The notes under the pieces were generated by a model. It did no database searches and had not been told where the DNA came from. It saw only the letters and a program-made list of their open reading frames with translations. A stretch of DNA of 40,708 nucleotides from an uncultured Thermodesulfobacteriaceae bacterium (GTDB lineage Bacteria; Desulfobacterota; Dissulfuribacteria; Dissulfuribacterales; UBA3076), in the NCBI GenBank assembly GCA_964585405.1, contig CAZPDU010000027.1, positions 1 through 40,708 on the forward strand, in the 5' to 3' direction. A program made the position numbers and the translations under genes. Numbering within the stretch: position 1 is the stretch's first letter; each line of letters begins with the position of its first letter. This document shows positions 279-36,115 of this stretch, one piece after another.

Positions 279-3200
279 ATGATCATGAACGAAAACGTGC
301 TTAATCAACTGGCTGAACTCTGTGGAATAGAGCCGGAATATCACGATATCTGGGGGAGAATTCATAAGGTCTCCAATAAGACCAAATCAGATCTGTTGAG
401 AGCCATGGGCCTGCCAATGGATGACGAAGCCTCTATAAGTTCTGCCCTGGCCGGGGAAAAGGCCGTTTTCTGGCAGCGCTTACTGGATCCTGTTCTGGTT
501 GTGAAGGAGAAGGAGTCTCCGTTCCTGGTCACTATCCGGCTCCCTGAAAAGGATACTGAGAATCGATTTGAATGGTTAATAAGGGAAGAGGGCGGTAATT
601 ATCACAAGGATACTTTTCTGCCTAAAGAGCTGGAAGTGAAAGGGTACGGCGAAACACAGGGGGAAACCTATATCCAGTGCATACTCTCCGTTCCGGTAAC
701 GCCTGGTCCGGGCTATCATCAACTGGAGATACGTCAGATCGATAACGGGAGCGAGTTGCCGAGGGTTATGCGACTCATAGTCGCTCCAGAGACTTGCTAC
801 ATGCCTTTTGGCCTTCAAGAGGGACGTGTCTGGGGACCCGCGGTACAACTCTATGCCCTCCGTTCCAGGCGTAACTGGGGGATAGGAGATTTGACGGACC
901 TTAAGACCCTTGTTTCCTGTTGCGCTGACATGGGTGCCGGTATTCTGGGTATTAATCCATTGCATGCTCTGTTTATCGAGGACCCTGAATATGCGAGTCC
1001 CTACAGCCCGTCGAGCAGGCTTTTTATAAATCTCCTTTATCTGGACATAGAGGCCATAGCAGATTTTCCGGAGTGCGACGAAGCACTGGATATGGTTAAG
1101 AATCCGGAATTTCAGGCCAGACTTGCCTCTTTCAGAGAAGGCGATCTGGTGGATTATAGTGAGGTGGCCGCAGCTAAACGCCCTGTTATGGAAGCACTTT
1201 ACAGGCATTTCCGCACGCACCATATGGGGCCAGAGGATGAAAGGTGTATGGCCTTCAGATCCTTTCAGGACCAGAGGGGTGAAGAGTTATACCGCTACGG
1301 ACTTTTTGAGGCCCTGGAAGAACATTTGTATCAAAAGACCCCTGGTATTCACGGCTGGCCAGGCTGGCCGGAAGACTACCGTAACCCTGATTCTCCTGCG
1401 GTCGCTGAATTTTCCGGGACACATCAGGAACGGATTGAATTTTTTCAATACCTTCAATGGCAAGCAGATCTGCAACTTGGTGCAGCAGGGCGTCAGTCTA
1501 TGGAACTTGGTCTTAAGGTGGGGCTCTATGAAGATCTGGCAGTCGGCGTTGATTCGGCAGGGCAAGAGACCTGGATGCATCAGAATCTATATGCCCTTGG
1601 CGTCCGCATTGGGGCCCCTCCTGACGATTTTAATCTCAACGGTCAGGACTGGGGGCTACCTCCCTTAATCCCGAACAGGCTTGTAGAGGAGGCGTATGCA
1701 CCATTTATAGCGACCCTCAGGGCCAATATGCGCTACGCAGGGGCACTAAGAATTGACCATGTGATGGGTCTCATGAGGCTCTTCTGGGTGCCGCCGGGGG
1801 GAAAACCGGCTGAAGGTGCTTATGTCAGTTATGCCTTTGATGACCTCCTGGGGATTCTGGCATTGGAAAGCCAGAGAAACAGGTGCCTCGTGATAGGTGA
1901 AGACCTAGGTACAGTGACGGATGATGTGCGTAGAGCACTTAAATCCATGAAGGTCCTGTCCTGCCGGCTCTTTTATTTCGAAAAGGAAGCAAATGGCAGA
2001 TTCAAGGCGCCTGATGATTATCCCGAACAGGCCCTGGTGGCTGTAAGCACCCACGATCTTCCCACTCTTTCAGGGTACTGGCGGGGATGGGATCTGGCGC
2101 TCAGAAACGAGCTGGGCCTGTTTCCGGAAGAATCTTTGCGGGAGGCCCAGATTGTGGGCAGGGCTCAGGATCGGGCTCGCCTCCTTATCGCCCTGGAACG
2201 TCAGGATATGCTTCCGAAAGGTATAGGAGTGGATCCGGCCTCAGTTCCAGAGATGACCACTGAGTTAGTGAATGCAGTTTATCTCTATCTGGCTCGTACA
2301 GTTTCCAAAATCTTGATGTTCCAGCTTGAAGATGTCTTTGCTCAACTGGAACAGGTCAATCTTCCCGGTACGATGGAGCAGTATCCAAACTGGCGCAGAA
2401 AGCTTCCTCTTGATCTTGAAGTCTTAATGGAAGATGAGCGCATTCAATCCCTTACCCGGATAATGCGGCAGGAAAGAGGGGGGGCACGGGCCTGGCCTGC
2501 TGCACCTCCAGAAAAAGGGCCGAGAATTGCGGGTGCGTGGATTCCCTCTGCGACTTACCGCCTTCAGTTCAACAGGGATTTTACATTTACTCAGGCAGCG
2601 GATCTTGTCCCTTATCTCAGACAACTGGGTATAAGCCATTGCTATTCCTCTCCTTATCTGAAGGCCCGTCCTGGCAGTCTTCATGGTTATGACATCATAG
2701 ACCACAGTGCACTCAATCCCGAGATTGGGACATGGGAAGACTTCGTTCATTTCATTGATACACTTCACTATCACGGAATGGGTCAGATTCTTGACCTGGT
2801 GCCCAATCATATGGGTGTTGGGTGCGATAACTACTGGTGGGTTGATGTCCTGGAAAACGGACAGGCTTCTCCTTATGCGGCCTTTTTTGATATCGACTGG
2901 TGGCCTGTCAAGGAGGAATTGCGGGGCAAGGTTCTTTTGCCGATACTGGAAGATCACTACGGCGCAGTGTTAGAGGCCGGTCTTCTCAGGCTGACCTTTG
3001 ATGACCAAAAAGGCGAATTCGGAATCTCTTATTACGATAACCTCTTTCCCATAGATCCGGCTACATATTCCTTTGTACTGGGTCATGGAACTGAGAGGCT
3101 GGAGGCCCGTCTGGAGGCTCAAGTCCAATGCTTTTCTGAATTTCAAAGTCTGGTTGCCGCCTTTGAAAACCTGCCCGGCAGTGAGGACAAGGAAAGAATA

Positions 3201-5465
3201 GAGGCCCGCCTTCGGGATAAGGAAGTCCATAAGCGACGGCTGGCAGGACTCTGCAAGGAATATTCGCAGATAAAAAGTTTCATTCAGGAAAATATTGTCT
3301 TGTTTAATGGCACAGAATCAGATGCCGCCAGTTTCCATCTTTTACACCGCCTGCTGGAAGCTCAGGCCTACCGGTTCGCCCACTGGCGAGTAGCCTCAGA
3401 TGAGATCAACTACCGCCGTTTCTTTGATATCAATGATCTTGCCGGACTCAAGACGGAAAATCCCAGAGTCTTTGAAGCAACCCACAGCTTTGTGCTGGAT
3501 CTTATAGACCAGGGTAAGATTGATGGACTGCGCATAGATCATCCTGATGGTCTTTATGATCCTGCTGAATACTACCGAAGGCTCAATGACGGAGTTCGAT
3601 GGCAAGTTATGGCGAGAGGCAAGAGAGAAAGCGGGCCGGATTCCAATAATAGTGCTACGGCTCCGGATCTCATATACCTGGTGGTGGAGAAGATTCTTGC
3701 CAACTATGAAAGGCTTCGAGGGGACTGGCAGGTACACGGAACGACAGGATACGATTTCGCCAATCTGGTGGGCGGTCTCTTTGTGAATACTCAAACGGAA
3801 AAGGAGATGTACAGGATCTATACGGAGTTCCTGGGCAATAGACTTGATTTTGAGGAATTGCTTTACCAGCGCAAAAAACTCATCATGAAAGTAGCCCTTG
3901 CCAGTGAATTAAATGTTCTTGCCAGTGAACTCAATCGCATCTCCGAATCAGACTGCCACACCAGAGATTTTACATTGAATAGTTTGAGGGATGCGCTTTC
4001 AGAAGTGGTGGCATGTTTTCCGGTGTACCGTACTTATGTCACCAGGGAGCGGATTACTTCGGAGGATCGCCGTTACGTGGATTGGGCCATAGCTCAGGCC
4101 CGAAAAAGGAGCCGGGCAGCTGACACGAATATATATGATTTTATCAGAGATGTCCTTCTCATGGATATAAGTGAGGACAAGAGCCATGAGTATAGAAAGG
4201 CTGTAAATGACTTCACTATGAAGTTCCAGCAATATTCCGGTCCTGTAATGGCCAAGGGTCTTGAAGACACCGCCTTTTACACCTACAATCTTTTAATATC
4301 ACTCAATGAAGTGGGCGGGGAGCCCCGCCGTTTTGGAGTTTCCGTCTCTGCCTTTCACCACCTGAATCAGGAGAGGGCGGCAAGCTGGCCTCATTCCATG
4401 CTGAATACGTCAACCCATGACAGTAAGAGGAGCGAAGACGTCCGGGCCAGGATAAGCGTACTATCTGAAATTCCAGACGAGTGGGAGGCAGCTGTAACCA
4501 AATGGGGTCTGCTCAGCCGCTTGAGCAAGCCAGCCTCTGACAGGGGAACAACCCGGTTCGCGAACGACGAGTATGCCCTGTACCAGACTCTGATCGGTGC
4601 TTGGCCTCTGGGGCAGCTTGATCAAAAAGGTTTTGCCTCTTTCCGCAGTCGCATTGAGCAATATATGATCAAGGCAGTAAGAGAGGCAAAGATCCTCAGC
4701 AGCTGGATCAATCCCGATCTTGAATATGAAGGTGCACTTCTCAAGTTCCTCCAGGGGCTTATAACCAGCGAGGGCGATAACCAGTTTCTCAAGGAGTTCC
4801 TTCCGTTTCAGCAGCGAGTTGTCTGGTTCGGCATGTTAAACAGCCTATCTCAGACCTTGCTTAAATTAACCGTTCCCGGAGTTCCAGACATATATCAGGG
4901 TAATGAGGTTTGGTCGTTCAGACTAGTGGATCCGGACAATAGAAGTCCGGTAGATTTTGGCCGCACAAGGGAGATTTTTCGAGATCTTGCCGCCTTTCTG
5001 TCCGTGCCGGACGAGCTGTTGCCAGGACGCGTGCGGGAACTTATGGAAGAAATGGAGGACGGAAGGATCAAGCTGTATCTTACCTGGAGGACCCTGTCTC
5101 TGCGGTGGGAGCATCAGGGGCTGTTTCAATACGGCACATATCTGCCTTTGTCTGTTAATGGTACAAAGGCAGAACACATATGCGCTTTTGCAAGAAGATT
5201 CAAAGACAGCACAGCTATCGTGGCAGTTCCAAGGCTCTATGTCGGACTTTGCGGTTTTTATCCGAAAGCGAAGCCTTTAGGTTCCGGAATATGGTCAGAC
5301 ACTGGGGTGAACGCCGCTTCTGAGCAATTTGATCAAAGGGCTTATCGAAATATCTTTACAGGAGAATGTATGGTTCCGGAAATGCACAGCGGCAACCTCT
5401 GTTTTCCAGCGGCACAACTGTTTTCCAATTTTCCTGTAGCCTTGTTAACCGATGCCCCGGCTTAG
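279..5465 (+). CDS. fusion protein: 4-alpha-glucanotransferase (amylomaltase, GH77, MalQ-like) joined to malto-oligosyltrehalose synthase (GH13, TreY-like)
   Basis: One uninterrupted 1728-codon ORF. The N-terminal ~735 aa carry GH77 motifs (INPLHAL, YSPSSRLF, LRIDHVMGL, IGEDLGTV, STHDLPT). A Pro/Ala-rich linker follows (~aa 736-752, about nt 2484-2534). The C-terminal ~975 aa carry TreY motifs (YRLQFN..FTF, HGYDIIDH, DLVPNH, GLRIDHPDGL, VVEKIL, STHDSKRSEDVR). Confidence 0.9.
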   Translation: MIMNENVLNQLAELCGIEPEYHDIWGRIHKVSNKTKSDLLRAMGLPMDDEASISSALAGEKAVFWQRLLDPVLVVKEKESPFLVTIRLPEKDTENRFEWLIREEGGNYHKDTFLPKELEVKGYGETQGETYIQCILSVPVTPGPGYHQLEIRQIDNGSELPRVMRLIVAPETCYMPFGLQEGRVWGPAVQLYALRSRRNWGIGDLTDLKTLVSCCADMGAGILGINPLHALFIEDPEYASPYSPSSRLFINLLYLDIEAIADFPECDEALDMVKNPEFQARLASFREGDLVDYSEVAAAKRPVMEALYRHFRTHHMGPEDERCMAFRSFQDQRGEELYRYGLFEALEEHLYQKTPGIHGWPGWPEDYRNPDSPAVAEFSGTHQERIEFFQYLQWQADLQLGAAGRQSMELGLKVGLYEDLAVGVDSAGQETWMHQNLYALGVRIGAPPDDFNLNGQDWGLPPLIPNRLVEEAYAPFIATLRANMRYAGALRIDHVMGLMRLFWVPPGGKPAEGAYVSYAFDDLLGILALESQRNRCLVIGEDLGTVTDDVRRALKSMKVLSCRLFYFEKEANGRFKAPDDYPEQALVAVSTHDLPTLSGYWRGWDLALRNELGLFPEESLREAQIVGRAQDRARLLIALERQDMLPKGIGVDPASVPEMTTELVNAVYLYLARTVSKILMFQLEDVFAQLEQVNLPGTMEQYPNWRRKLPLDLEVLMEDERIQSLTRIMRQERGGARAWPAAPPEKGPRIAGAWIPSATYRLQFNRDFTFTQAADLVPYLRQLGISHCYSSPYLKARPGSLHGYDIIDHSALNPEIGTWEDFVHFIDTLHYHGMGQILDLVPNHMGVGCDNYWWVDVLENGQASPYAAFFDIDWWPVKEELRGKVLLPILEDHYGAVLEAGLLRLTFDDQKGEFGISYYDNLFPIDPATYSFVLGHGTERLEARLEAQVQCFSEFQSLVAAFENLPGSEDKERIEARLRDKEVHKRRLAGLCKEYSQIKSFIQENIVLFNGTESDAASFHLLHRLLEAQAYRFAHWRVASDEINYRRFFDINDLAGLKTENPRVFEATHSFVLDLIDQGKIDGLRIDHPDGLYDPAEYYRRLNDGVRWQVMARGKRESGPDSNNSATAPDLIYLVVEKILANYERLRGDWQVHGTTGYDFANLVGGLFVNTQTEKEMYRIYTEFLGNRLDFEELLYQRKKLIMKVALASELNVLASELNRISESDCHTRDFTLNSLRDALSEVVACFPVYRTYVTRERITSEDRRYVDWAIAQARKRSRAADTNIYDFIRDVLLMDISEDKSHEYRKAVNDFTMKFQQYSGPVMAKGLEDTAFYTYNLLISLNEVGGEPRRFGVSVSAFHHLNQERAASWPHSMLNTSTHDSKRSEDVRARISVLSEIPDEWEAAVTKWGLLSRLSKPASDRGTTRFANDEYALYQTLIGAWPLGQLDQKGFASFRSRIEQYMIKAVREAKILSSWINPDLEYEGALLKFLQGLITSEGDNQFLKEFLPFQQRVVWFGMLNSLSQTLLKLTVPGVPDIYQGNEVWSFRLVDPDNRSPVDFGRTREIFRDLAAFLSVPDELLPGRVRELMEEMEDGRIKLYLTWRTLSLRWEHQGLFQYGTYLPLSVNGTKAEHICAFARRFKDSTAIVAVPRLYVGLCGFYPKAKPLGSGIWSDTGVNAASEQFDQRAYRNIFTGECMVPEMHSGNLCFPAAQLFSNFPVALLTDAPA

Positions 5466-8279: not shown

Positions 8280-8993
8280 TTATTTTAATTCTTCTGCAAG
8301 CAGAACTGCCTCTGCTACCTGGCGCATTGATTTACGGGAGTCCATACTACGTTTTTGAATCCAGCGAAAGGCCTCATCCACTTCCATTTTCTGTCTGCGT
8401 ATAAGGACCTCTTTGGCACGCTCCACCAGTTTGCGCGTCTCCAGCTCCTCACTGATCACCTTGGTTTTTACCATGAGTTCGGTGTTGAGGATTGCGACTG
8501 CCGCCTGATTTGCAACCGTTGTAATGAGATAAACTTCAGTATCAGTAAATTCGTGAGGTTCTGAGGTAAAACAGTTCAGTACACCTATTACCTTCTCATC
8601 CTTTACTTGAAGCGGCACGCTGACCATAGATATCAGGCCGAGCTTTTTGGCCATTTCCTTTTCCTTGAACCGAGGCTCTTTTGACACATCCCTGATGATA
8701 AGTGGCTGATTGTGTGTGGCCACAAAGCCGACCACTCCCTCATCCAGAGATAGAGAACGGTCCTTCAGATAGTCAGAGGCTATGGCCTGCGTGGCCTTCA
8801 GCCGGATCTTTCTGGGATTTGCGGTTTCATCAATAAGCCATAATGAACAGATCTCAACACCTGTTACCTTGGCCGTTACCATTACGATGAGTTTCAGAAT
8901 ATCTTCAAGATACTGATCGGAAGTGATGGCCTGGCTTATATCCATCAGGGCCCTCATGTATTTTTCGTAGGTTTCTGGTCTGTTTTCTTCCAT
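8280..8993 (-). CDS. GAF domain plus ANTAR domain RNA-binding antitermination regulator
   Basis: 237 aa. The N-terminal ~150 aa are GAF-like (DISQAITS...ILKLIV...CSLWL...). The C-terminal ~55 aa match the ANTAR pattern (ETRKLVERAKEVLIRRQKMEVDEAFRWIQKRSMDSRKSMRQVAEAVL). Confidence 0.8.
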   Translation of the reverse strand: MEENRPETYEKYMRALMDISQAITSDQYLEDILKLIVMVTAKVTGVEICSLWLIDETANPRKIRLKATQAIASDYLKDRSLSLDEGVVGFVATHNQPLIIRDVSKEPRFKEKEMAKKLGLISMVSVPLQVKDEKVIGVLNCFTSEPHEFTDTEVYLITTVANQAAVAILNTELMVKTKVISEELETRKLVERAKEVLIRRQKMEVDEAFRWIQKRSMDSRKSMRQVAEAVLLAEELK

Positions 8994-9528
8994 TTATTAT
9001 GTGCCTGATTCCATTTCCGGAATATGCTAAAAAACAGGTTGATTCTGGTGTTGACCTCCAAACTGGGTCAGATTCAAGATAATACTAAAGATTCTCCTGT
9101 GACTCAATCACTCCATCTATCAGTATCAAGAAAAAATATTCGACTTATGCCTAATTGATTACAGTTGATATAATGTTGTTTGAAAGGCGGTATCAGTTAA
9201 GCAGGAAAGTAAAACGCAAGTGATAAGTTCACGCAGTAATTTTGCGCTAAGGGTAACCTGGAACCTCAGTAGTAATTTTCACCCCACAATTTCTAAAGTA
9301 TTTTTTTACCATATCAGGTAAATTAAACAGGTTAAACTTTATCTGTCATAATTACTTTAACAGTATTCGTTGTTGACAATTCTTGGTTTTTGAATTGACA
9401 ATCAGTCTGGTGCACTATAAACATAACATACAGGTAAATCCCATGATGCATCGCTAAAATATTGCTGGCATAATTGACATCTATAGATGTTTTTATTCCA
9501 TAAAACCCTTAAAGAGGAGGAGAAGAAG

Positions 9529-10005
9529 ATGATGAAAAAATGGAGCATTGTAGTTGTGTCTTGTATCATCATGATCAGCATGGTCAGTGTTGCGTCCGCC
9601 AACACCGTTCGAGAGGATTGTGGATGCGGTTTAGGCGCTATTGCTATCGGTGAAAAGGAAGGCGTCTTATGGAAACTGCTTGGCACATTTCTGAATGGGC
9701 TCTCCGGCAACCAGACCTTCGGCATGAGCAGCGGTACGTCAGATTGCGGAAAAGATCAATGGATTGCCAAGTATGACAAAATGAATATTTTTGTTGCCGA
9801 TAACATGGATATTTTGGCCATCGATATTGCTCAAGGCCAAGGCGAATCTTTAGATGCCTTAGCTGAAATTGCGGAAATTCCGATTGGTGAAAGGCCATCT
9901 CTGTATGCTGCCTTGCAGAGCAATTTCGATTCAATCTATCCCACAGCCCAGGTTTCTCACACCGATGTTGTAAAGGAAATTGCTAAAATTATACAGCCCA
10001 GCTAA
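9529..10005 (+). CDS. secreted DUF3015-like protein
   Basis: I prefer the ATG at 9529 over the track start at 9487 because AGGAGG at 9516-9521 lies 7 nt upstream. It has a signal peptide (MMKKWSIVVVSCIIMISMVSVASA). The CGCGLGA...GLSGNQTFGMSSGTSDC pattern matches my memory of the DUF3015 family and needs an HMM check. Confidence 0.6.
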   Translation: MMKKWSIVVVSCIIMISMVSVASANTVREDCGCGLGAIAIGEKEGVLWKLLGTFLNGLSGNQTFGMSSGTSDCGKDQWIAKYDKMNIFVADNMDILAIDIAQGQGESLDALAEIAEIPIGERPSLYAALQSNFDSIYPTAQVSHTDVVKEIAKIIQPS

Positions 10006-10011
10006 ACCTTC

Positions 10012-11952
10012 TTGCCGGTCAATCATAAGGATACAAAAAAGAGATACACAGTTTTTGCCCTTCGTGTATCTCTTTTTTGTAAGCTGGTTCTTCTATCAGC
10101 GCATGTAGCCTGTCCGGTCGCTTTCGCCGACCGACAGGAGGTGGCAGATCTGATCTCTATTGCCCAAGACAAAGGGCTCTTCAGAGATCGTTACTGGCAT
10201 ATTCTGATGCATTATGAAAAGACGCTTTTCGGTGTTAATAGTAACATCGATGACCCCTCTTTTTTTCTAGCACCTGACGGAAAAACAAATCCCCAATCCG
10301 AACTGGAAGCCACCATTTCCGTCCTGTTCCAAGAAGATGATAAAGCGGCAGAGCCCTATGTATGCAGGTTTTACGGCCGTTTTATGTGGCTTAAGCAAGC
10401 CCTGATGGTTAACTCCGAAAGGTATGCAAACCGAATGTGCGCAGAGATAGACAACATTTTGCCTGTATCCGCAACTCTCGTTTTCCCTACCTATTATATG
10501 AACAACCCGGCATCAATGTTTGGCCATACCCTGCTGACCATCAGTACTGAATATAAAAACAGACGGCTGGCATACGCGGTAAACTATGCGGCACAGGCCG
10601 ACAACACCGTGGACGGCCTTTCCTTTGCCGTAAACGGCTTATTCGGTCTGTACAAGGGTTACTATTCTGTGGAGCCGTATTATAAGAAGATTCAGGAGTA
10701 TGGAGATATTCACCACCGTGATATCTGGGAGTATACCCTTAACCTCACCCCTGAGGAATTGAAGTGGCTAATCCATCATGTCAAGGAGCTAAACGGAGTC
10801 TACACGGACTATTTTTTCTTTGACGAAAACTGCTCTTTCAATCTTCTTTTCCTTATTGAAGCGGCCAGACCCTCGGTAGACCTCGTTTCCCAATTTAAGG
10901 GTCCTTTTGTATTTCCATTGGATACCATAAAAGCAATTAAAAGCGCCGGCCTGATTATGGATGAAACATTTCGACCTTCAAAAGTAACACGCATCCGGCA
11001 TCTAATTGAGTCGCTAGATGATCCGGCCATAGACAGCGCCACAGAAATCATCAGGGGCCGGATTTCACCAATGGATATTAGTGTTACTTCCGGCTCTCAT
11101 CCACCGGATCAGAAGGCGAAGGTCCTTGATTTAGCTGCCGAACAGCTTCAATATCTCTACGTTAAAAAGATGATTGACAAAAAGACTTACCAGGAGCGTT
11201 TCCTGGAAACGTTGAGGGCTCGAAGCAGGCTGGGGATTATGAGTGCCGAAAATGCCAAAAACATTCCTATTCCACCACGGCCAGAAAGAGGTCATGATTC
11301 CAAGCGGATCAGTCTGGCTGGGGGATCGCACGATGGCAACGCGTTTTGTGAATTACGTTTTCGCCCAGCTTTTACTGATCTTCTTGACATGGATTATATT
11401 CATCAGCAGGGAGCCCAGATCGAATTTGGCGACGCCAGGCTACGCTATTTTTTTTCAAACCATCGATTTCAATTACAGCAACTCGATATAATCGATATTA
11501 TTTCCATATCGGCAAGGGACGCATTTTTTAAGCCGCTGTCATGGAAGGTGGATACCGGCTTTCACAGGAAACCCATAGACAACAAGGAAGGGGCGCTTTT
11601 TTACCGGCTCAACACGGGTACTGGCTTGGCTATCGACTATCCGTTTTTGGGCTTGTCCTATGCCATGGTCACAGGCGAAGCGGATTTCAGCGGGGCACTG
11701 AAAGAAAATTTTGCTCTGGGACCGGGCTTTATATGCGGTATGGTTAAAAAGGTAGCTCCTTTTCTAAAGAGTCACTTGTATGGGGAGATAAAATGGTTTA
11801 TGGCCGGCGATTCCCATACAGAGAGCGCGATAGCCTTTTCTAATAACTTGAAAGTGTCGAAAAACAACCATTTTTCTTTGGAATTGAAATGGGAACACGT
11901 TAATCATTGGGACAGCATGGAAGCCTCAGGCGTGTGGCACTTCTTTTTTTAA
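10012..11952 (+). CDS. DUF4105-like (Lnb N-terminal periplasmic domain) envelope protein with a probable beta-rich C-terminal half
   Basis: 646 codons from TTG 10012. A signal-peptide-like N-terminus ends in AFA-D. RYWHILMHYEKTLFG...IDDPSFFLAPDGKTNPQSELEAT is characteristic of DUF4105 proteins as I remember them. The start is uncertain because the hairpin at 10035-10079 lies inside the first 23 codons. Confidence 0.6.
   Translation: MPVNHKDTKKRYTVFALRVSLFCKLVLLSAHVACPVAFADRQEVADLISIAQDKGLFRDRYWHILMHYEKTLFGVNSNIDDPSFFLAPDGKTNPQSELEATISVLFQEDDKAAEPYVCRFYGRFMWLKQALMVNSERYANRMCAEIDNILPVSATLVFPTYYMNNPASMFGHTLLTISTEYKNRRLAYAVNYAAQADNTVDGLSFAVNGLFGLYKGYYSVEPYYKKIQEYGDIHHRDIWEYTLNLTPEELKWLIHHVKELNGVYTDYFFFDENCSFNLLFLIEAARPSVDLVSQFKGPFVFPLDTIKAIKSAGLIMDETFRPSKVTRIRHLIESLDDPAIDSATEIIRGRISPMDISVTSGSHPPDQKAKVLDLAAEQLQYLYVKKMIDKKTYQERFLETLRARSRLGIMSAENAKNIPIPPRPERGHDSKRISLAGGSHDGNAFCELRFRPAFTDLLDMDYIHQQGAQIEFGDARLRYFFSNHRFQLQQLDIIDIISISARDAFFKPLSWKVDTGFHRKPIDNKEGALFYRLNTGTGLAIDYPFLGLSYAMVTGEADFSGALKENFALGPGFICGMVKKVAPFLKSHLYGEIKWFMAGDSHTESAIAFSNNLKVSKNNHFSLELKWEHVNHWDSMEASGVWHFFF
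10035..10079 (+). terminator. perfect 15-bp hairpin with a T-run (terminator/attenuator-like) just after the DUF3015-like gene
   Basis: AAAAAAGAGATACAC (10035-10049) pairs perfectly with GTGTATCTCTTTTTT (10064-10078) around a 14-nt loop. The 3' arm ends in six Ts. Confidence 0.65.
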
Positions 11953-12030
11953 TTCAGCAAGTTCCACACATTTTTTATCTATCGAGGCTATAAAGCCGGT
12001 CAACAAATCAGCGTGTAATCAGAAGGCGTC

Positions 12031-12069
12031 GCAGCACTTTAACTTGCGGCTGTGAAAGTGTTTTTCTGC
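12031..12069 (+). terminator. candidate intrinsic terminator after the DUF4105-like gene
   Basis: CACTTT (12035-12040) pairs with AAAGTG (12055-12060) around a 14-nt loop, followed by TTTTT (12061-12065). Flanking GCAG/CTGC could extend the stem. Confidence 0.4.
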
Positions 12070-12121
12070 CAGATGCCATACTGATGAGCGTGATATTCGG
12101 TGTGGGAAATTAAATGAGTAA

Positions 12122-12991
12122 ATGGCATGGTTCACATTGAATTGCACGGATAATCTTGACCGTTGTTACATGTTAGGTTGGGTATTATTTTTTATTTTTC
12201 CTATCATTGTCGGTTGTTCCAATCTGATGTTTCTTCCGAATCAGATTCGATACAGTACGCCAGATGATTTCGGACTTGACTATGAAGACATTTTTCTCAG
12301 AATACCAGAAAATATAAGGCTTCATGCTTGGTTTCTTCCATCCAAAGTTGATGCCAAAGGGACGGTATTTTTCTTACACGGCAATGCTCAAAATATTAGC
12401 GCCCATATTTATAGTATATATTGGCTACCGGAGAATGGATATCATGTCTTTATGATAGATTATAGGGGATACGGGGCCTCAACCGGCACCCCCACAGTAC
12501 AGGGAGTTTTGGATGATATCAGTACAGGATTTGCTTGGCTTGTCCAGAATCAGCAAGTTCAAAAAGGCCCGATCTTTTTATTAGGCCAAAGTCTAGGAGC
12601 TAGTCTTGGCATCTATTTCGTGGGCACTCACTCTAATGAAAAAAAGCAACTGGCAGGTGTAATTTCGGATGCTGCTTTTTCAAGTTTTCGCTCAATCGCA
12701 CGTGAGAAACTTGATAGCTTCTGGCTGACTTGGCCTTTCCAATATCCACTATCATTGTTAATGCCTGACGATTTTGATCCACAGGACGTGATTCAAAACA
12801 TCTCTCCAGTTCCTGTGCTGATCATGCACAGCAAGGATGACCAGATCGTCCCATCAACTCACGGCCAAATCTTGTATGAATTGGCCGGAAAGCCTAAGTT
12901 TTTTGTTCAGACTAGAAACGGGCATATTGCAACATTCAAGTACAGTGAGTACCGGGAGGCAGCATTAAAATTCATGGCGGCTTTCGATTAA
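12122..12991 (+). CDS. alpha/beta hydrolase (serine aminopeptidase S33-like), membrane-anchored or lipoprotein
   Basis: 289 aa. It has the HG oxyanion motif FFLHGNAQN, the nucleophile elbow GQSLGAS, an acidic HSKDDQIVP segment and a late GH. The N-terminal hydrophobic segment ends in IIVGC, which is lipobox-like. The start could instead be the ATG at 12170. Confidence 0.8.
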   Translation: MAWFTLNCTDNLDRCYMLGWVLFFIFPIIVGCSNLMFLPNQIRYSTPDDFGLDYEDIFLRIPENIRLHAWFLPSKVDAKGTVFFLHGNAQNISAHIYSIYWLPENGYHVFMIDYRGYGASTGTPTVQGVLDDISTGFAWLVQNQQVQKGPIFLLGQSLGASLGIYFVGTHSNEKKQLAGVISDAAFSSFRSIAREKLDSFWLTWPFQYPLSLLMPDDFDPQDVIQNISPVPVLIMHSKDDQIVPSTHGQILYELAGKPKFFVQTRNGHIATFKYSEYREAALKFMAAFD

Positions 12992-13587: not shown

Positions 13588-13923
13588 ATGGACGGCTTGA
13601 ATTGGTCAGCGGAAAAGGAAAAGCGTGAGACGGCCGCCATTGAGGAACACGAGCGTCTCCATCGGCTTTTTGTAGAAGATCGCCTCTCCTTTGAACGGGA
13701 AAGAAAGAGCGCGATCAGGGAACTTATCGAAAGCGTCGAAGATGCGGGTATGCGGGAAAGGTTATGGGAATTCCAGCATTCCTGGGACAGGAAAATGAGG
13801 CATGCCGGATCCACAGCCAATCGTTTTGTTTTGGCGCAGACCTTCTTCTGGGAACATTTTCAAGAGGTCTGGCACCCTGCCATTAAGCAATTCAGTGCCA
13901 TGCTGAACGGAAAGCATGAGTAG
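13588..13923 (+). CDS. small hypothetical protein, possibly DUF3135-like
   Basis: I prefer the ATG at 13588 because AGAGGG lies 7 nt upstream; the track ORF starts at 13525. The 111-aa product is charged and helical. RERLWEFQHSWDRKMRH...FVLAQTFFWEHF loosely resembles DUF3135 proteins. The family call is tentative. Confidence 0.4.
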   Translation: MDGLNWSAEKEKRETAAIEEHERLHRLFVEDRLSFERERKSAIRELIESVEDAGMRERLWEFQHSWDRKMRHAGSTANRFVLAQTFFWEHFQEVWHPAIKQFSAMLNGKHE

Positions 13924-13983
13924 ATTTTTTTAGAACTATCCGCTTTCTAGACTGGGATTATTCAAGGTAAATTAATCTGGATT

Positions 13984-14199
13984 TTATTTTACTTCCGTTG
14001 GGCACAAGAAAAGTGGGCTGGCTTTCTCAGCCGCCCGGGCCAGCTCTAATCCGTTTTTTCCGGCGCGCGCCGCTTCAAAGAAGGCGTTAAGAGCAAGCAG
14101 ATTTGCCTGCATCCCGCGGTTTTTTCTCTCACGAGTATTCCTGATTATGTTCGTATTTTTTCTCTGTTTTTCCATGTTATTAATAAATTTTGCCTGCAT
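13984..14199 (-). other. 71-codon ORF containing a segment like the methyl-accepting-chemotaxis-protein hairpin tip; it could be coding, a gene relic, or part of a non-coding RNA
   Basis: The translation ...GMQANLLALNAFFEAARAGKNGLELARAAEKA matches the most conserved MCP signalling-tip motif (NLLALNAAIEAARAGE) at 14 of 16 positions. There is no convincing SD. An intrinsic terminator hairpin sits inside the ORF's 3' end. Confidence 0.3.
14005..14035 (-). terminator. intrinsic terminator (minus strand)
   Basis: The minus strand reads GGGCGGCU-gagaa-AGCCAGCCC, an 8-bp GC-rich stem with a one-nt bulge (plus-strand 14014-14035). It is followed by ACUUUUCUUG (plus-strand 14004-14013). Confidence 0.5.
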
Positions 14200-14255
14200 G
14201 TTTTATATTAGCCTGGATGGCATTATGTATCTAAAGCCTTTGAAACCCATAAAAC

Positions 14256-14271
14256 AGCAAAAAGGGTGCCA
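14256..14271 (-). promoter_or_regulatory. sigma54 (RpoN) -24/-12 promoter, exact consensus
   Basis: The minus strand reads TGGCAC-CCTTT-TTGCT, with the GG and GC dinucleotides separated by 10 nt. The predicted transcription start is near 14245, pointing toward the 13984-14199 ORF and its terminator. Confidence 0.7.
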
Positions 14272-14495
14272 AAAGGATTTTTGTATTTTTATAACGTAAT
14301 TTCAATTATATATATTAGTGAGATTGATTTTTAAGGGGCGGTGGGAGCTTGTGCGGTGCGCTGATAGTCACTTTTTTGACGCATAGATCGTGCCAGAACC
14401 GGTCTGCGAATGTATCATGATGTCTCTTTCGGCCTGCATCATTTTCATGATTATGACGCCGCATTGAGCAGAAGAATCGGAAAATTTCAGATTTA

Positions 14496-14525
14496 TTGAC
14501 CTGCTGATTCCAATCGTGCTATAAG
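14496..14525 (+). promoter_or_regulatory. sigma70-like promoter candidate upstream of the dodecin gene
   Basis: TTGACC (14496-14501), an 18-nt spacer, then TATAAG (14520-14525). This would give a leader of about 200 nt ahead of the ATG at 14733. Confidence 0.3.
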
Positions 14526-14732
14526 ATCAATATGTATTATTCCGCTATATTGTCAGCAGTTGAATGGCTAAATGCATTTCATTAATAGCTAGCCAATGCT
14601 GCCAGAAGCGATACACAGAAGTGGTCGAAAGCGGGGATTCTTTTCCGCAGGTTCGACGATCACTGAATAGCCAATTAACTAGAAGTGGGTACAGCCCTCC
14701 ATTTAAATCTTCACAGCTAGGGAGTATTAATC

Positions 14733-14933: not shown

Positions 14934-15362
14934 GCATAATGACCTAGAAGTTATGAGTGGACCAGCCTCATGGAAGACCTGTATGCCGGTTTGTCCTGGC
15001 TGCGGCTTTTTTCGGTCGAGTGATCTTTGACACTATGGTATCAGGGGATAACCTTGTATGCGCTTTTTTCTATAGTGCAAACGTCAAAACCAGCTTCTTA
15101 TAATCATGTAACAGGTTGTCAAGGTCCGAAGCGACATCCATTTACTCTGCCCCTATGGCTGCTTCTTCGTAGAGAAAGTATTTTTTCTTCCAGTAACTAT
15201 ACATTTCCTTAAATCTCGTTAGTCGTATCCCCTGCAATACTTTTGTTTGTCTCATGAGTGGCCTTCTTCACTCTCATGAAACCGCACAAAACGAGTGTTT
15301 CAAATCAGGACAATTCACGTGTTCACTGCAGATTTTTTGACAGTTCTTGACAGTCCGATCTT

Positions 15363-15379
15363 AATTGTGATACACAATT
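15363..15379. promoter_or_regulatory. 17-bp perfect palindrome (operator-like) overlapping a candidate promoter
   Basis: AATTGTG-ATA-CACAATT at 15363-15379. It lies immediately downstream of a tandem TTGACAGT TC TTGACAGT duplication (TTGACA at 15337-15342 and 15347-15352), about 135-175 nt upstream of the lipoprotein gene. Confidence 0.3.
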
Positions 15380-15512
15380 TTCATGTCATGGTAATTCGTA
15401 CTAAAGGAGTCTGAGGAGATCTTGTGTTCAGAGTCCATCGTTCACTGGTCAAACTACTCCCTAATTCCTTGAGAGCGATTTTATATAGGCCAGTGTTGGC
15501 AGGAGGCGAAAG

Positions 15513-15755
15513 ATGAAACGCATGTTAATGATTTTATTAGTCTTATTTTCACTGGCACTTGTAGGTTGTGAAAGTAGATGGGGTTCTGCAGGTCTGGGGG
15601 CCGCTGGAGGTGCAGCTGCAGGTGCAGGAGGTTATGAGTGGAAAATTAATCAGGAATTGAATCGCATAGATGAAGCACGTGATGAAGGAAAAATAAGTCA
15701 GGAAGAATATGAAATACGTAAGGATCAGATTCATAGGATGTCGATTTTAAAGTGA
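15513..15755 (+). CDS. small lipoprotein with a glycine-zipper segment and a SHOCT-like C-terminus
   Basis: 80 aa. The signal peptide has the lipobox LALVGC. It is followed by a Gly/Ala-rich stretch (GSAGLGAAGGAAAGAGG) and then EGKISQEEYEIRKDQI, which resembles the SHOCT motif. The SD GGAGG lies 7 nt upstream. Confidence 0.75.
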   Translation: MKRMLMILLVLFSLALVGCESRWGSAGLGAAGGAAAGAGGYEWKINQELNRIDEARDEGKISQEEYEIRKDQIHRMSILK

Positions 15756-16664
15756 TGATATGAGCTAAATTATGATCTATTGAATCATTTGGGTGGAAAA
15801 TGCATGTGAGCTTATCTCTTCTGGTTGCAACAACTATCTGGGGGAGAAATACTTCATAAGAAAGTGGTGAGGAAGGCATTTAATATGCTCATTATGCGGT
15901 AAATTTTTTATTGTAGCCACAGCATAAGGGCTCAAGACGTTTTCCAAGCGTTGCCTATTTATCATCCAACAGTTCTCTCGTTTTCCAGGTTACAGACCTT
16001 ATTACAGGCCGACGTTAAGGAGTCCATAAGCTCTCTGAGATAGCCTAATAATAGTCGATCAATGACGTTCATGCGATGACACTTGTGTAACTGCCTTCGA
16101 CCCCCAATGGGTCATGTTCACCATGGCGCCGACATGATATAAAAAAGAAACGCTTAGTTCACGGCGAGTTTGACAAAGCAAAGATCATGAGGAGGCGAGA
16201 AGGCCGAAGATGCCTCACTTAATCTCAATAATCAGTCGCTGATCCGGTAAATTTCAGCCGCTATTCTTTTTTCACCTTACGCATTTGGATCGTATAGTGT
16301 TAAATGAGTGACAATCAGTCTTGGAGTTGTTTTCCGATCCATGCCTGGAGTCTAAATGTTTTAAAGACTTATATCCCACGTGTCAGCCCAAAGTTTTAAA
16401 AAATACAAGAACCGAGAACAGAAAACATGAATCTATGAAATGGACGAAACGAGTGAAGAAGGTCATGGAACCAGCATCACCCTTTTGTGGGGCTCATGGC
16501 TAAAAAGGGGGAGAGAGAGCGCTGTGCCTGCTTATTGGGACCATGGATAATCACCTCTGAGCTTCTTGAAGATGTCGAAAGAAATCTCATGGGAAAAAAT
16601 GGAAAGAAATCAACTGATTCTACAGTCAACAGGGAAAAAACGGACAGGAAGGCCTTGATTTTTT

Positions 16665-35221: not shown

Positions 35222-36046
35222 CTATCCGGTTTTTTTGTTAAACCTCTTGCGGCCAAAGGCGATCATGCCGAAGAGACCAGAACCTACAAGCAATACCGTG
35301 GCAGGTTCGGGGACCGGGGCGCTCCCGTTACCCATAAGATTATCATTACCGCATTCCATGGTAAAGTGTACTGTAAAGTCCTGTAAATCAGCCCCGGCAT
35401 CTATAAGATCACAGAGATCTATGGCCACCGCGTTGTGTGTTCCGCCCAGAAGACCGCCCACATCAGTATCCGCCAGGCCGGTGTAATATGTAAAACCGTA
35501 GCCGTCTATGTTGCCTGCAAGGTCCCCGCCAGAGTTATAGGCCACCGGATTTGATTCGTCATTCTGTCCATAATAAACCGATACAGTTGATGATTCGTTC
35601 AAACTATAAATATGATAACGGTTAGTTGCAAAATTAAGCCTCAGTGCATATTCGTATCCAAAATTGTTGTTTAAAATGCCGTATCCACTTCCACTGCCCT
35701 GATTTGCGGTTCCATATTCCGCATCTCCGTTCGTATCAATAAATATATCCCCTGATTCGAACAATAAACCATTTCCCCATACACCATTTAAAAAATCGTA
35801 ACCGCCCACCATGGTCAGTATTGTACCATCAAGGAAAAAACCTTCCAGGTCCCACATTTGCCCTGTAACACAGTTGGGTGCAACCTCCTGGTCTTCCTGA
35901 GCACCATACCATCCGGTGCCAGAACCGACTCCGTCATACATGGTTATGTTAGTTCCCAGAGAGAGTGCAGAGACAATTCCTGTGGTGCCCAAAACCATTA
36001 AAATAGAAAATAAAAAGATTTCTAAAGACCTTTTCTTACTTTTCAT
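35222..36046 (-). CDS. PEP-CTERM sorting-domain protein (secreted, exosortase substrate)
   Basis: 274 aa with a signal peptide. The C-terminus VPEPATVLLVGSGLFGMIAFGRKRFNKK has the PEP motif, a TM helix and a basic tail. The SD GGGGA lies 5 nt upstream of the ATG. Confidence 0.85.
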   Translation of the reverse strand: MKSKKRSLEIFLFSILMVLGTTGIVSALSLGTNITMYDGVGSGTGWYGAQEDQEVAPNCVTGQMWDLEGFFLDGTILTMVGGYDFLNGVWGNGLLFESGDIFIDTNGDAEYGTANQGSGSGYGILNNNFGYEYALRLNFATNRYHIYSLNESSTVSVYYGQNDESNPVAYNSGGDLAGNIDGYGFTYYTGLADTDVGGLLGGTHNAVAIDLCDLIDAGADLQDFTVHFTMECGNDNLMGNGSAPVPEPATVLLVGSGLFGMIAFGRKRFNKKTG

Positions 36047-36099: not shown

Positions 36100-36115
36100 A
36101 GCAATAATAATGCCA
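36100..36115 (-). promoter_or_regulatory. sigma54 -24/-12 promoter candidate for the PEP-CTERM protein gene
   Basis: The minus strand reads TGGCAT-TATTA-TTGCT, with GG and GC separated by 10 nt and one mismatch to TGGCAC-N5-TTGCW. The predicted start is near 36089, 43 nt upstream of the ATG at 36046. Confidence 0.65.

Follow-up and report, generated by a model that had tools for sequence, protein, structure and literature searches.

Does a consensus sigma54 promoter that precedes some sixty codons of chemoreceptor-like sequence serve a small RNA, the remains of a receptor gene or a small protein in its own right? The question is raised by a locus on contig CAZPDU010000027.1 (GenBank assembly GCA_964585405.1) of an uncultured Thermodesulfobacteriaceae bacterium, from which we analyzed a stretch of 40.7 kb, here called the window; the gene under study lies on its minus strand, as do the positions given below unless stated otherwise. 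An initial annotation had described a sigma54-driven, terminator-bounded transcript of ~240 nucleotides (nt) that carries an open reading frame (ORF) of 71 codons, and had considered a sigma54-dependent small RNA, a mini-protein mimicking the tip of a methyl-accepting chemotaxis protein (MCP) and a decaying relic. Comparison with related loci favors the second of these readings: the locus very probably holds a real sigma54-type small-protein gene that belongs to a family of tip-only MCP derivatives. Its core features are:

13984-14175, minus strand: conserved coding sequence of 63 codons plus TAA for a predicted tip-only mini-MCP (MEKQRKNTNIIRNTRERKNRGMQANLLALNAFFEAARAGKNGLELARAAEKASPLFLCPTEVK), recognized by selection, Pfam MCPsignal match, small homologues and AlphaFold2
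14176-14199, minus strand: non-conserved 8-codon N-terminal extension of the 71-codon ORF, whose ATG 14199 is lost in relatives
14006-14036, minus strand: GC hairpin (14036-14015) and weak U tract (14012-14006) within the 3' end of the coding sequence
14256-14271, minus strand: predicted sigma54 (-24/-12) promoter TGGCACCCTTTTTGCT, sole exact consensus match in the window and conserved

The evolution of this gene was followed in three lineages of relatives with ~90% DNA identity to the window locus, aligned over 861 bp, and in the more distant loci L012 and L026, which were also used for a phylogenetic footprint; the L012 orthologue shares 68% protein identity. A protein identical to the window product is encoded on contig LQBF01000005 of assembly GCA_002029965.1 and on a contig of the JGI "ML8" metagenome. 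LQBF00000000 is the metagenome-assembled genome (MAG) ML8_D from Mahoney Lake, classed as Seep-SRB2 in the Dissulfuribacterales family UBA3076 (PMC10553843). In all relatives the ORF is intact, with zero indels and zero stops. Against two other lineages the 63-codon frame shows proportions of nonsynonymous to synonymous change (pN/pS) of 0.24 and 0.15, compared with 0.11-0.43 for the neighboring bona fide genes (dodecin, DUF3135, hydrolase and radical SAM); the sense frame has the lowest ratio among the six, and the synonymous excess gives binomial p values of 0.0004 and 0.02. The ratio of the corresponding rates (dN/dS) is 0.20 at a dS of 0.93 against the L012 orthologue, and overall it ranges from 0.15 to 0.27 across comparisons, similar to neighboring genes. 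Judged by this pattern of change, the locus is a translated-looking, selectively constrained protein-coding gene, whose product has the predicted tryptic peptides GMQANLLALNAFFEAAR and ASPLFLCPTEVK.

The 71-codon ORF (14199-13984) is indeed present in the window, but its start is not conserved. ATG 14199 reads ACA, together with a 1-nt deletion, in lineages B and C as well as in L026, so the conserved ORF begins at ATG 14175 and comprises 63 codons; this start agrees with the N-termini of distant homologues. A start at M22 (ATG/GTG) was dropped because groups 2 and 3 of the family described next have another residue than Met there, while they share an N-terminal M-x-x-Q/K-x-K pattern.

A word-indexed protein search with the single sequence returned only the window protein's own 90% cluster. 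An exhaustive HMMER search of 1.84 billion representatives recovered further proteins of 63-69 amino acids (aa) with 45-68% identity, and a profile search gave about 20 clusters with lengths of 61-77 aa and scores of 49-119 bits, with generic MCP fragments mostly scoring at or below 47 bits. The family compiled around the product has ~37 distinct members of 58-88 aa, found in Desulfobacterota metagenomes and MAGs. They form at least three groups, in all of which an N-terminal M-x-x-Q/K-x-K and a basic stretch accompany the core QxNLLALNAxFEAARxGxxG. Members agree in start, length and motif, and the protein is still conserved between groups whose DNA is no longer alignable. On present sequences, the hallmarks of the family are the motif (Q)xNLLALNAxFEAARxGxxG, a sigma54 promoter that usually lies upstream, and a DUF3135 gene that is convergent in every member with readable downstream DNA. 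One candidate, P0026, was left out: it has a canonical tip, no DUF3135 neighbor and an adjacent IS200-type transposase, and is therefore regarded as a true MCP fragment, for which it serves as a control. Among family resources, NCBIfam gave weak MCP matches only, PADLOC none and PHROGs one MCP-like family, and a literature search on DUF3135, receptor mimics, mini-chemoreceptors and small ORFs found no published description of such a family. The gene falls outside MCP membership and is a predicted derivative of an MCP, not a complete receptor, in a family previously undescribed.

How much of a receptor does the product contain? It matches Pfam MCPsignal (PF00015) with an E value of 5e-7 and 30.1 bits at model positions 34-75 of 172, a score under the gathering threshold of 34.6 bits. 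The chemoreceptor-tip motif reported at the outset is borne out: residues 22-49 align gap-free to Tsr 373-400, and in the PDB the family profile matches the tips of MCPs with an E value of ~1e-14. With 63 aa and ~42 of 172 model positions covered, the product is less than a full MCP signaling domain. We found no other Pfam domain in it and no sensor, transmembrane, HAMP or PAS input module; it consists of a basic N-terminal extension and the membrane-distal hairpin tip, equivalent to Tsr ~352-414. AlphaFold2 predicts a helical hairpin (helix 2-37, turn, helix 40-56) with a mean predicted local distance difference test (pLDDT) score of 70.7.

The tip is where receptors meet their kinase and coupling protein. 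In Tsr, residues Q374, I377, L380, N381, V384 and R388 lie within 4 Å of CheA-P5, and I377, L380, N381, V384, R388 and R404 within 4 Å of CheW (PMC13098124). Counted over 37 distinct family members, positions of this docking face read:

Tsr I377: L in 37/37 members
Tsr L380: L in 35/37 members
Tsr N381: N in 36/37 members
Tsr R388: R in 33/37 members
Tsr Q374: Q in 25/37 members
Tsr V384: F in 35/37 members (a partly biased count, as explained below)

The predicted docking face of the N-helix is thus the most constrained part of the family, with a family-specific Phe at its center. Elsewhere the canonical R394-G395 is replaced in the family by a variable residue followed by E, and the position of Tsr F396 is occupied by F in 23 members, by L in another 13. 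Together with the purifying selection, the retention of CheA/CheW contacts across a family of small proteins argues for the earlier suggestion of a mini-protein that mimics the receptor tip.

The promoter is the second support of this reading. TGGCACCCTTTTTGCT at 14271-14256 matches TGGCAC-N5-TTGCW at 11/11 specified positions with GG and GC 10 bp apart and, as the initial annotation had emphasized, such a match is rare: it is the only exact one in the window, against 0.03 expected from dinucleotide-preserving shuffles. The motif is unchanged across the three ~90%-identical lineages. L026 has TGGCACTTTTTTTGCT, an 11/11 match, and L012 has TGGCATTCTTTTTGCT, a 10/11 match located 159 nt before the ATG; sigma54-like sites are also found in group 2 (TGGCACAATCTCTGCA at -65) and group 3 (TGGCATnATTCCTGCT, 250-630 nt upstream). 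In a DUF3135-anchored scan of species-representative genomes, a sigma54-like site, defined as a match at 9/11 or more positions that preserves GG and GC and lies no more than ~300 nt upstream, was present at 7/12 mini-ORF loci versus a background of 4.3% per 300 nt (p ~2e-7), and in only 2/29 DUF3135 loci that lack the mini ORF, where 900 nt were scanned. Most loci from a metagenome scan have such a site upstream as well. The predicted sigma54 promoter, strengthened by this conservation, is in our judgment genuine. Around it lie the following elements:

14176-14245, minus strand: predicted 5' leader, A/U-rich, with the conserved block CATAATGC.A.CC.GGC, from alignment with L012 and L026
14280-14460, minus strand: conserved upstream region, candidate enhancer/IHF (integration host factor) region, from the footprint against L012 and L026, alignment and inverted repeat I3
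14381-14355, minus strand: conserved upstream block CGTCAAAAAAGTGACTATCAGCGCACC, from the phylogenetic footprint
14333-14323, minus strand: conserved upstream block TTAAAAATCAA, from the phylogenetic footprint
14304-14287, minus strand: conserved upstream block TGAAATTACGTTATAAAA, from the phylogenetic footprint
14413-14459, minus strand: TCAT/ATGA palindromes, inverted repeat I3

Promoter geometry predicts a transcription start near 14245. Several of the upstream blocks are still conserved in distant L012 and, with the palindromes, they span 20-200 bp upstream of the promoter; they are candidate activator or IHF sites. No gene for an enhancer-binding protein was found within the 40-kb window, and NtrC-type regulators a few kb distant were seen in L017 and L047 only. 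The second sigma54-like element of the initial annotation (14395-14380) is present, but it departs from the consensus at two positions and one lineage lacks its -12 GC, and by this record it is not meaningful. Another sigma54-type site, TGGCATTATTATTGCT at 36100-36115 on the minus strand (one mismatch, with GG/GC preserved), precedes by 54 nt the ATG of a 274-aa ORF without Pfam domain (35222-36046, minus strand). Beyond the upstream region a block of ~43 nt (14496-14538) is conserved even in distant L012; on the plus strand it reads TTGACC-18 nt-TATAAG, sigma70-like and facing the dodecin/radical-SAM genes. This block may be a sigma70-like promoter of the divergent plus-strand genes or, equally, a distal enhancer of the sigma54 promoter.

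The main contextual clue, overlooked by the initial annotation, is a convergent partner gene whose stop lies 60 nt from that of the mini-MCP gene:

13588-13923, plus strand: gene of a DUF3135 protein of 111 aa, convergent partner, Pfam PF11333 match
13899-13929, plus strand: hairpin and T7 terminator of the DUF3135 gene itself, from a terminator scan

The product scores 30.2 bits against PF11333 (threshold 22.7) and has 119 homologues. AlphaFold2 models it as a 4-helix protein with a pLDDT of 82.7, for which Foldseek found no significant match in the PDB, and a literature search found neither a function for DUF3135 nor a link to the mini-MCP gene. A convergent DUF3135 gene is present in all four protein-anchored contexts, whose other neighbors are wholly different:

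Window and P0009 lineages: dodecin, radical SAM
Group 2: thymidylate synthase
Group 3: flagellar rod gene, MinD/ParA-like ATPase, PilZ

The metagenome scan, anchored on ALNAxFEAA, yielded 21 small ORFs, with a convergent DUF3135 gene in 20/20 of those with readable downstream DNA; the full-length MCPs and larger MCP-like ORFs from the same scan showed no DUF3135, with only two having more than ~200 nt of readable downstream sequence. Conversely, the DUF3135-anchored scan gave 41 loci, all from Desulfobacterota, 12 of them with a convergent mini ORF. In species-representative genomes the mini ORF accompanies about 30% of DUF3135 loci; the ~70% without it indicate that DUF3135 has an independent existence. 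In two of the 41 loci (L029 and L031) a full-length MCP occupies the same convergent position, from which the family plausibly arose. Across the family the gap between the convergent genes varies from about -6 to 246 nt.

Several of these loci hold further genes. In L030, one of the 12 mini-ORF loci, a full-length haem-sensor MCP lies directly upstream of the mini ORF in the same orientation: the stretch 2409-4599 (minus strand) holds, in this order, a multihaem cytochrome (c554-like), a class-40H MCP whose sensor domain is of the haem type and the mini-MCP, all convergent with DUF3135. In group 3 a small ORF without Pfam match (MDKIIILTGNSERDDRLIESLNILFPECEIEIQSKQTEGFEGFPVHMKENLEVGIR; L021 1918-2088 and L022 1397-1621, plus strand) ends 1 nt before the mini-MCP start, which suggests a two-gene operon behind the distant sigma54-like site. 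A ParA-DUF3135 fusion called in L022 probably reflects a frameshift or faulty gene calling, given that both genes are called separately in L021. DUF3135 loci without the mini-MCP often carry in its position a conserved Cys-rich ORF (…RCGNCRHFSQFPNLKGHNTPQSLGKCLADSWDGNKGQWPMLRHPCKAF…, 65-78 aa), as seen convergent with DUF3135 on the minus strand of L045, L046 and L056.

What might such a protein do? The best overall explanation, which we consider probable but far from assured, is a sigma54-dependent, translated tip-only protein that modulates chemosensory arrays or acts on them as a decoy. An enhancer-binding protein would switch the gene on, and the mini-protein would expose the docking face of a receptor tip to CheW/CheA-P5 or receptor trimers and in this way modulate array assembly or kinase coupling, or serve as a decoy in these processes; the DUF3135 protein would perhaps cooperate with it or counter it. 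That the mini-protein acts via the CheW/CheA interface is a more tentative proposal, which we would not bet on. Unlikely in all its particulars, if worth stating, is the specific version in which an inducible decoy of 63 aa docks on CheW/CheA-P5 or intercalates in receptor trimers via its Phe-384 face and so uncouples or remodels arrays, with DUF3135 as partner or antagonist.

A number of observations weigh against a role in chemosensory arrays or against the protein itself. The window leader has no Shine-Dalgarno sequence, as the initial annotation had also remarked; the L012 orthologue has a 64-nt insertion with a strong AGGAGG immediately before the same start codon. Foldseek of the mini-protein model against the PDB was not significant (E 2.7), which is expected for so small a hairpin; both matches were MCP models. 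The C-terminal arm of the window protein (GLELARAAEKAS) is poorly MCP-like, without R394/G395 and R404 and with Leu for F396. The count of Phe at Tsr position 384 carries some ascertainment bias, as F was a fixed part of the pattern used in the metagenome scan; HMM-based sets, unconstrained at this position, show the same Phe. The V384>F change, nearly invariant and central to the face that contacts CheA/CheW, could equally signal an altered partner, no che genes were found within the 40-kb window, and the strict pairing with DUF3135 hints at a partner unrelated to chemotaxis.

The last of these points lead to the alternative that survives best, namely that the tip hairpin was co-opted for another partner. 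The mini-protein and DUF3135 would then form a two-component module, for example a regulator and an anti-regulator, for which CheA and CheW would be irrelevant and the MCP likeness a matter of ancestry. We regard this as possible but unlikely. The convergent DUF3135 gene is the most constant feature of the family (20/20), with other neighbors differing completely between groups, and besides the family-specific V384>F and the loss of the canonical R394-G395 such a module would sit well with the lack of che genes in the window. The ~70% of DUF3135 loci without the mini ORF have been counted in its favor, too. On the other hand, the invariant residues are exactly the Tsr contact set for CheA-P5 and CheW, the mini ORF of L030 stands directly behind a full-length MCP, flagellar rod, PilZ and MinD/ParA-like genes are found at the loci of group 3, and DUF3135 itself has no informative fold match.

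A function at the RNA level is improbable. Here the sigma54 transcript would run into DUF3135, acting by antisense or transcriptional interference, or a dual-function small RNA would end at the internal hairpin, with the peptide secondary. The narrow convergent gaps across the family are compatible with this, and there is no proper minus-strand terminator between both stops. The hairpin at 14036-14015 (about -14.7 kcal/mol) is followed by CACUUUUCUU, and hairpin and CUUUUCUU tract are roughly retained in three lineages, partly via non-synonymous changes. However, the seven codons past the U tract (LCPTEVK) show three synonymous and no non-synonymous changes; since they are constrained, translation and therefore transcription would run beyond the hairpin. 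At most the hairpin would be a leaky terminator or pause site that probably does not bound the transcript, so that the ~240-nt terminator-bounded unit of the initial annotation is wrong or at least doubtful. The peptide is, moreover, strongly conserved at saturating synonymous divergence and also between groups whose DNA cannot be aligned. No Rfam family passed the gathering threshold, a permissive scan at E<=10 yielded only noise, and the 247-nt RNA folds no better than shuffled sequences (z = -0.81). With this coding-like evolution, a purely non-coding small RNA appears very unlikely. Of the smaller elements reported before, the 11-nt direct repeat is present but its upstream copy is lost in relatives, and the GC palindrome CGGCGCGCGCCG exists but only represents the codons for AARAG and is broken in relatives by a synonymous GCG>GCT change; by this comparison neither is meaningful. 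All elements of the initial annotation are thus present in the sequence, with the promoter and the MCP motif alone going beyond chance expectation.

That the locus is a decaying relic of a full-length MCP gene with a fortuitous sigma54 motif is highly implausible: although the product falls short of the Pfam gathering threshold (30.1 versus 34.6 bits), L029 and L031 have full-length MCPs in the equivalent convergent position beside DUF3135 and true MCP fragments exist elsewhere (such as P0026 beside its transposase), the ORF is intact in every relative with a dN/dS of 0.15-0.27, about 37 members agree in start, length and motif, the sigma54 promoter is retained in relatives and enriched across the family, and tblastn with three full-length MCPs matched only the mini ORF, with no MCP homology in any frame of the flanks.

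A strain 99.9% identical to the window (L005 7207-8530, corresponding to window 9487-12991) has TRL and PEGA-SHOCT genes in place of the DUF3015, Lnb-like and hydrolase genes, a recent cassette swap directly beside the DUF3135/mini-MCP pair that leaves the pair itself untouched. On the other side, 1.7 kb at 14934-16664 hold unusually few genes, the sole ORF (15513-15755, plus strand) encoding 80 aa, lipoprotein-like with a SHOCT-like C-terminus. This whole segment is missing in lineage B (L006), in which the dodecin and radical-SAM genes are directly adjacent. A GAF-ANTAR regulator of the RNA-binding antiterminator type (8280-8993, minus strand) is kept in all related loci.

If a tip-only protein indeed acts on arrays, it would be a new type of array regulator, and a natural counterpart of engineered tip fragments, in a signaling machine that ranks among the best studied, and chemotaxis in Desulfobacterota would have a previously unrecognized level of control; DUF3135 would gain its first function. 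We found no description of a natural stand-alone protein limited to the receptor tip in the literature. The strict pairing also provides a testable functional lead for DUF3135, an orphan Pfam family. There is a lesson for annotation as well: a sub-threshold domain match, 63 codons and no Shine-Dalgarno sequence looked like a small RNA or junk, and comparative data reveal a gene.

How does the mini-MCP compare with known systems? Small RNAs that depend on sigma54 exist, for instance Vibrio Qrr and Pseudomonas CrcZ/NrsZ. Like them, the mini-MCP gene is a short stand-alone unit that has a -24/-12 promoter and conserved sequence upstream; unlike them, it has neither an Rfam match nor significant structure, and it shows a coding signature and a conserved peptide family. 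With the MCP tip (PF00015; E. coli Tsr ~373-404; Thermotoga maritima Tm1143, PDB 2CH7) the mini-protein has the motif NLLALNAxxEAARAGxxG in common, along with a predicted helix-turn-helix hairpin and the CheA-P5/CheW contact residues. In contrast to MCPs of 300-700 aa, its 63 aa include no methylation helices, HAMP, transmembrane or sensor domain, and it differs in the Phe at Tsr-384, the loss of R394-G395 and a basic, non-heptad N-terminal arm. Similar in size are engineered tip fragments that comprise the same receptor part (3UR1 chain C, 85 aa; 4JPB chain B, 90 aa), which the family profile matches at E ~1e-12. Co-crystallized with CheA-P4P5 and CheW, these fragments demonstrate that an isolated tip can contact CheA-P5 and CheW (PMC13098124). 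They are, however, laboratory truncations of a normal receptor, whereas the mini-MCP is a natural gene with a promoter of its own, a divergent C-terminal arm and a conserved genomic partner.

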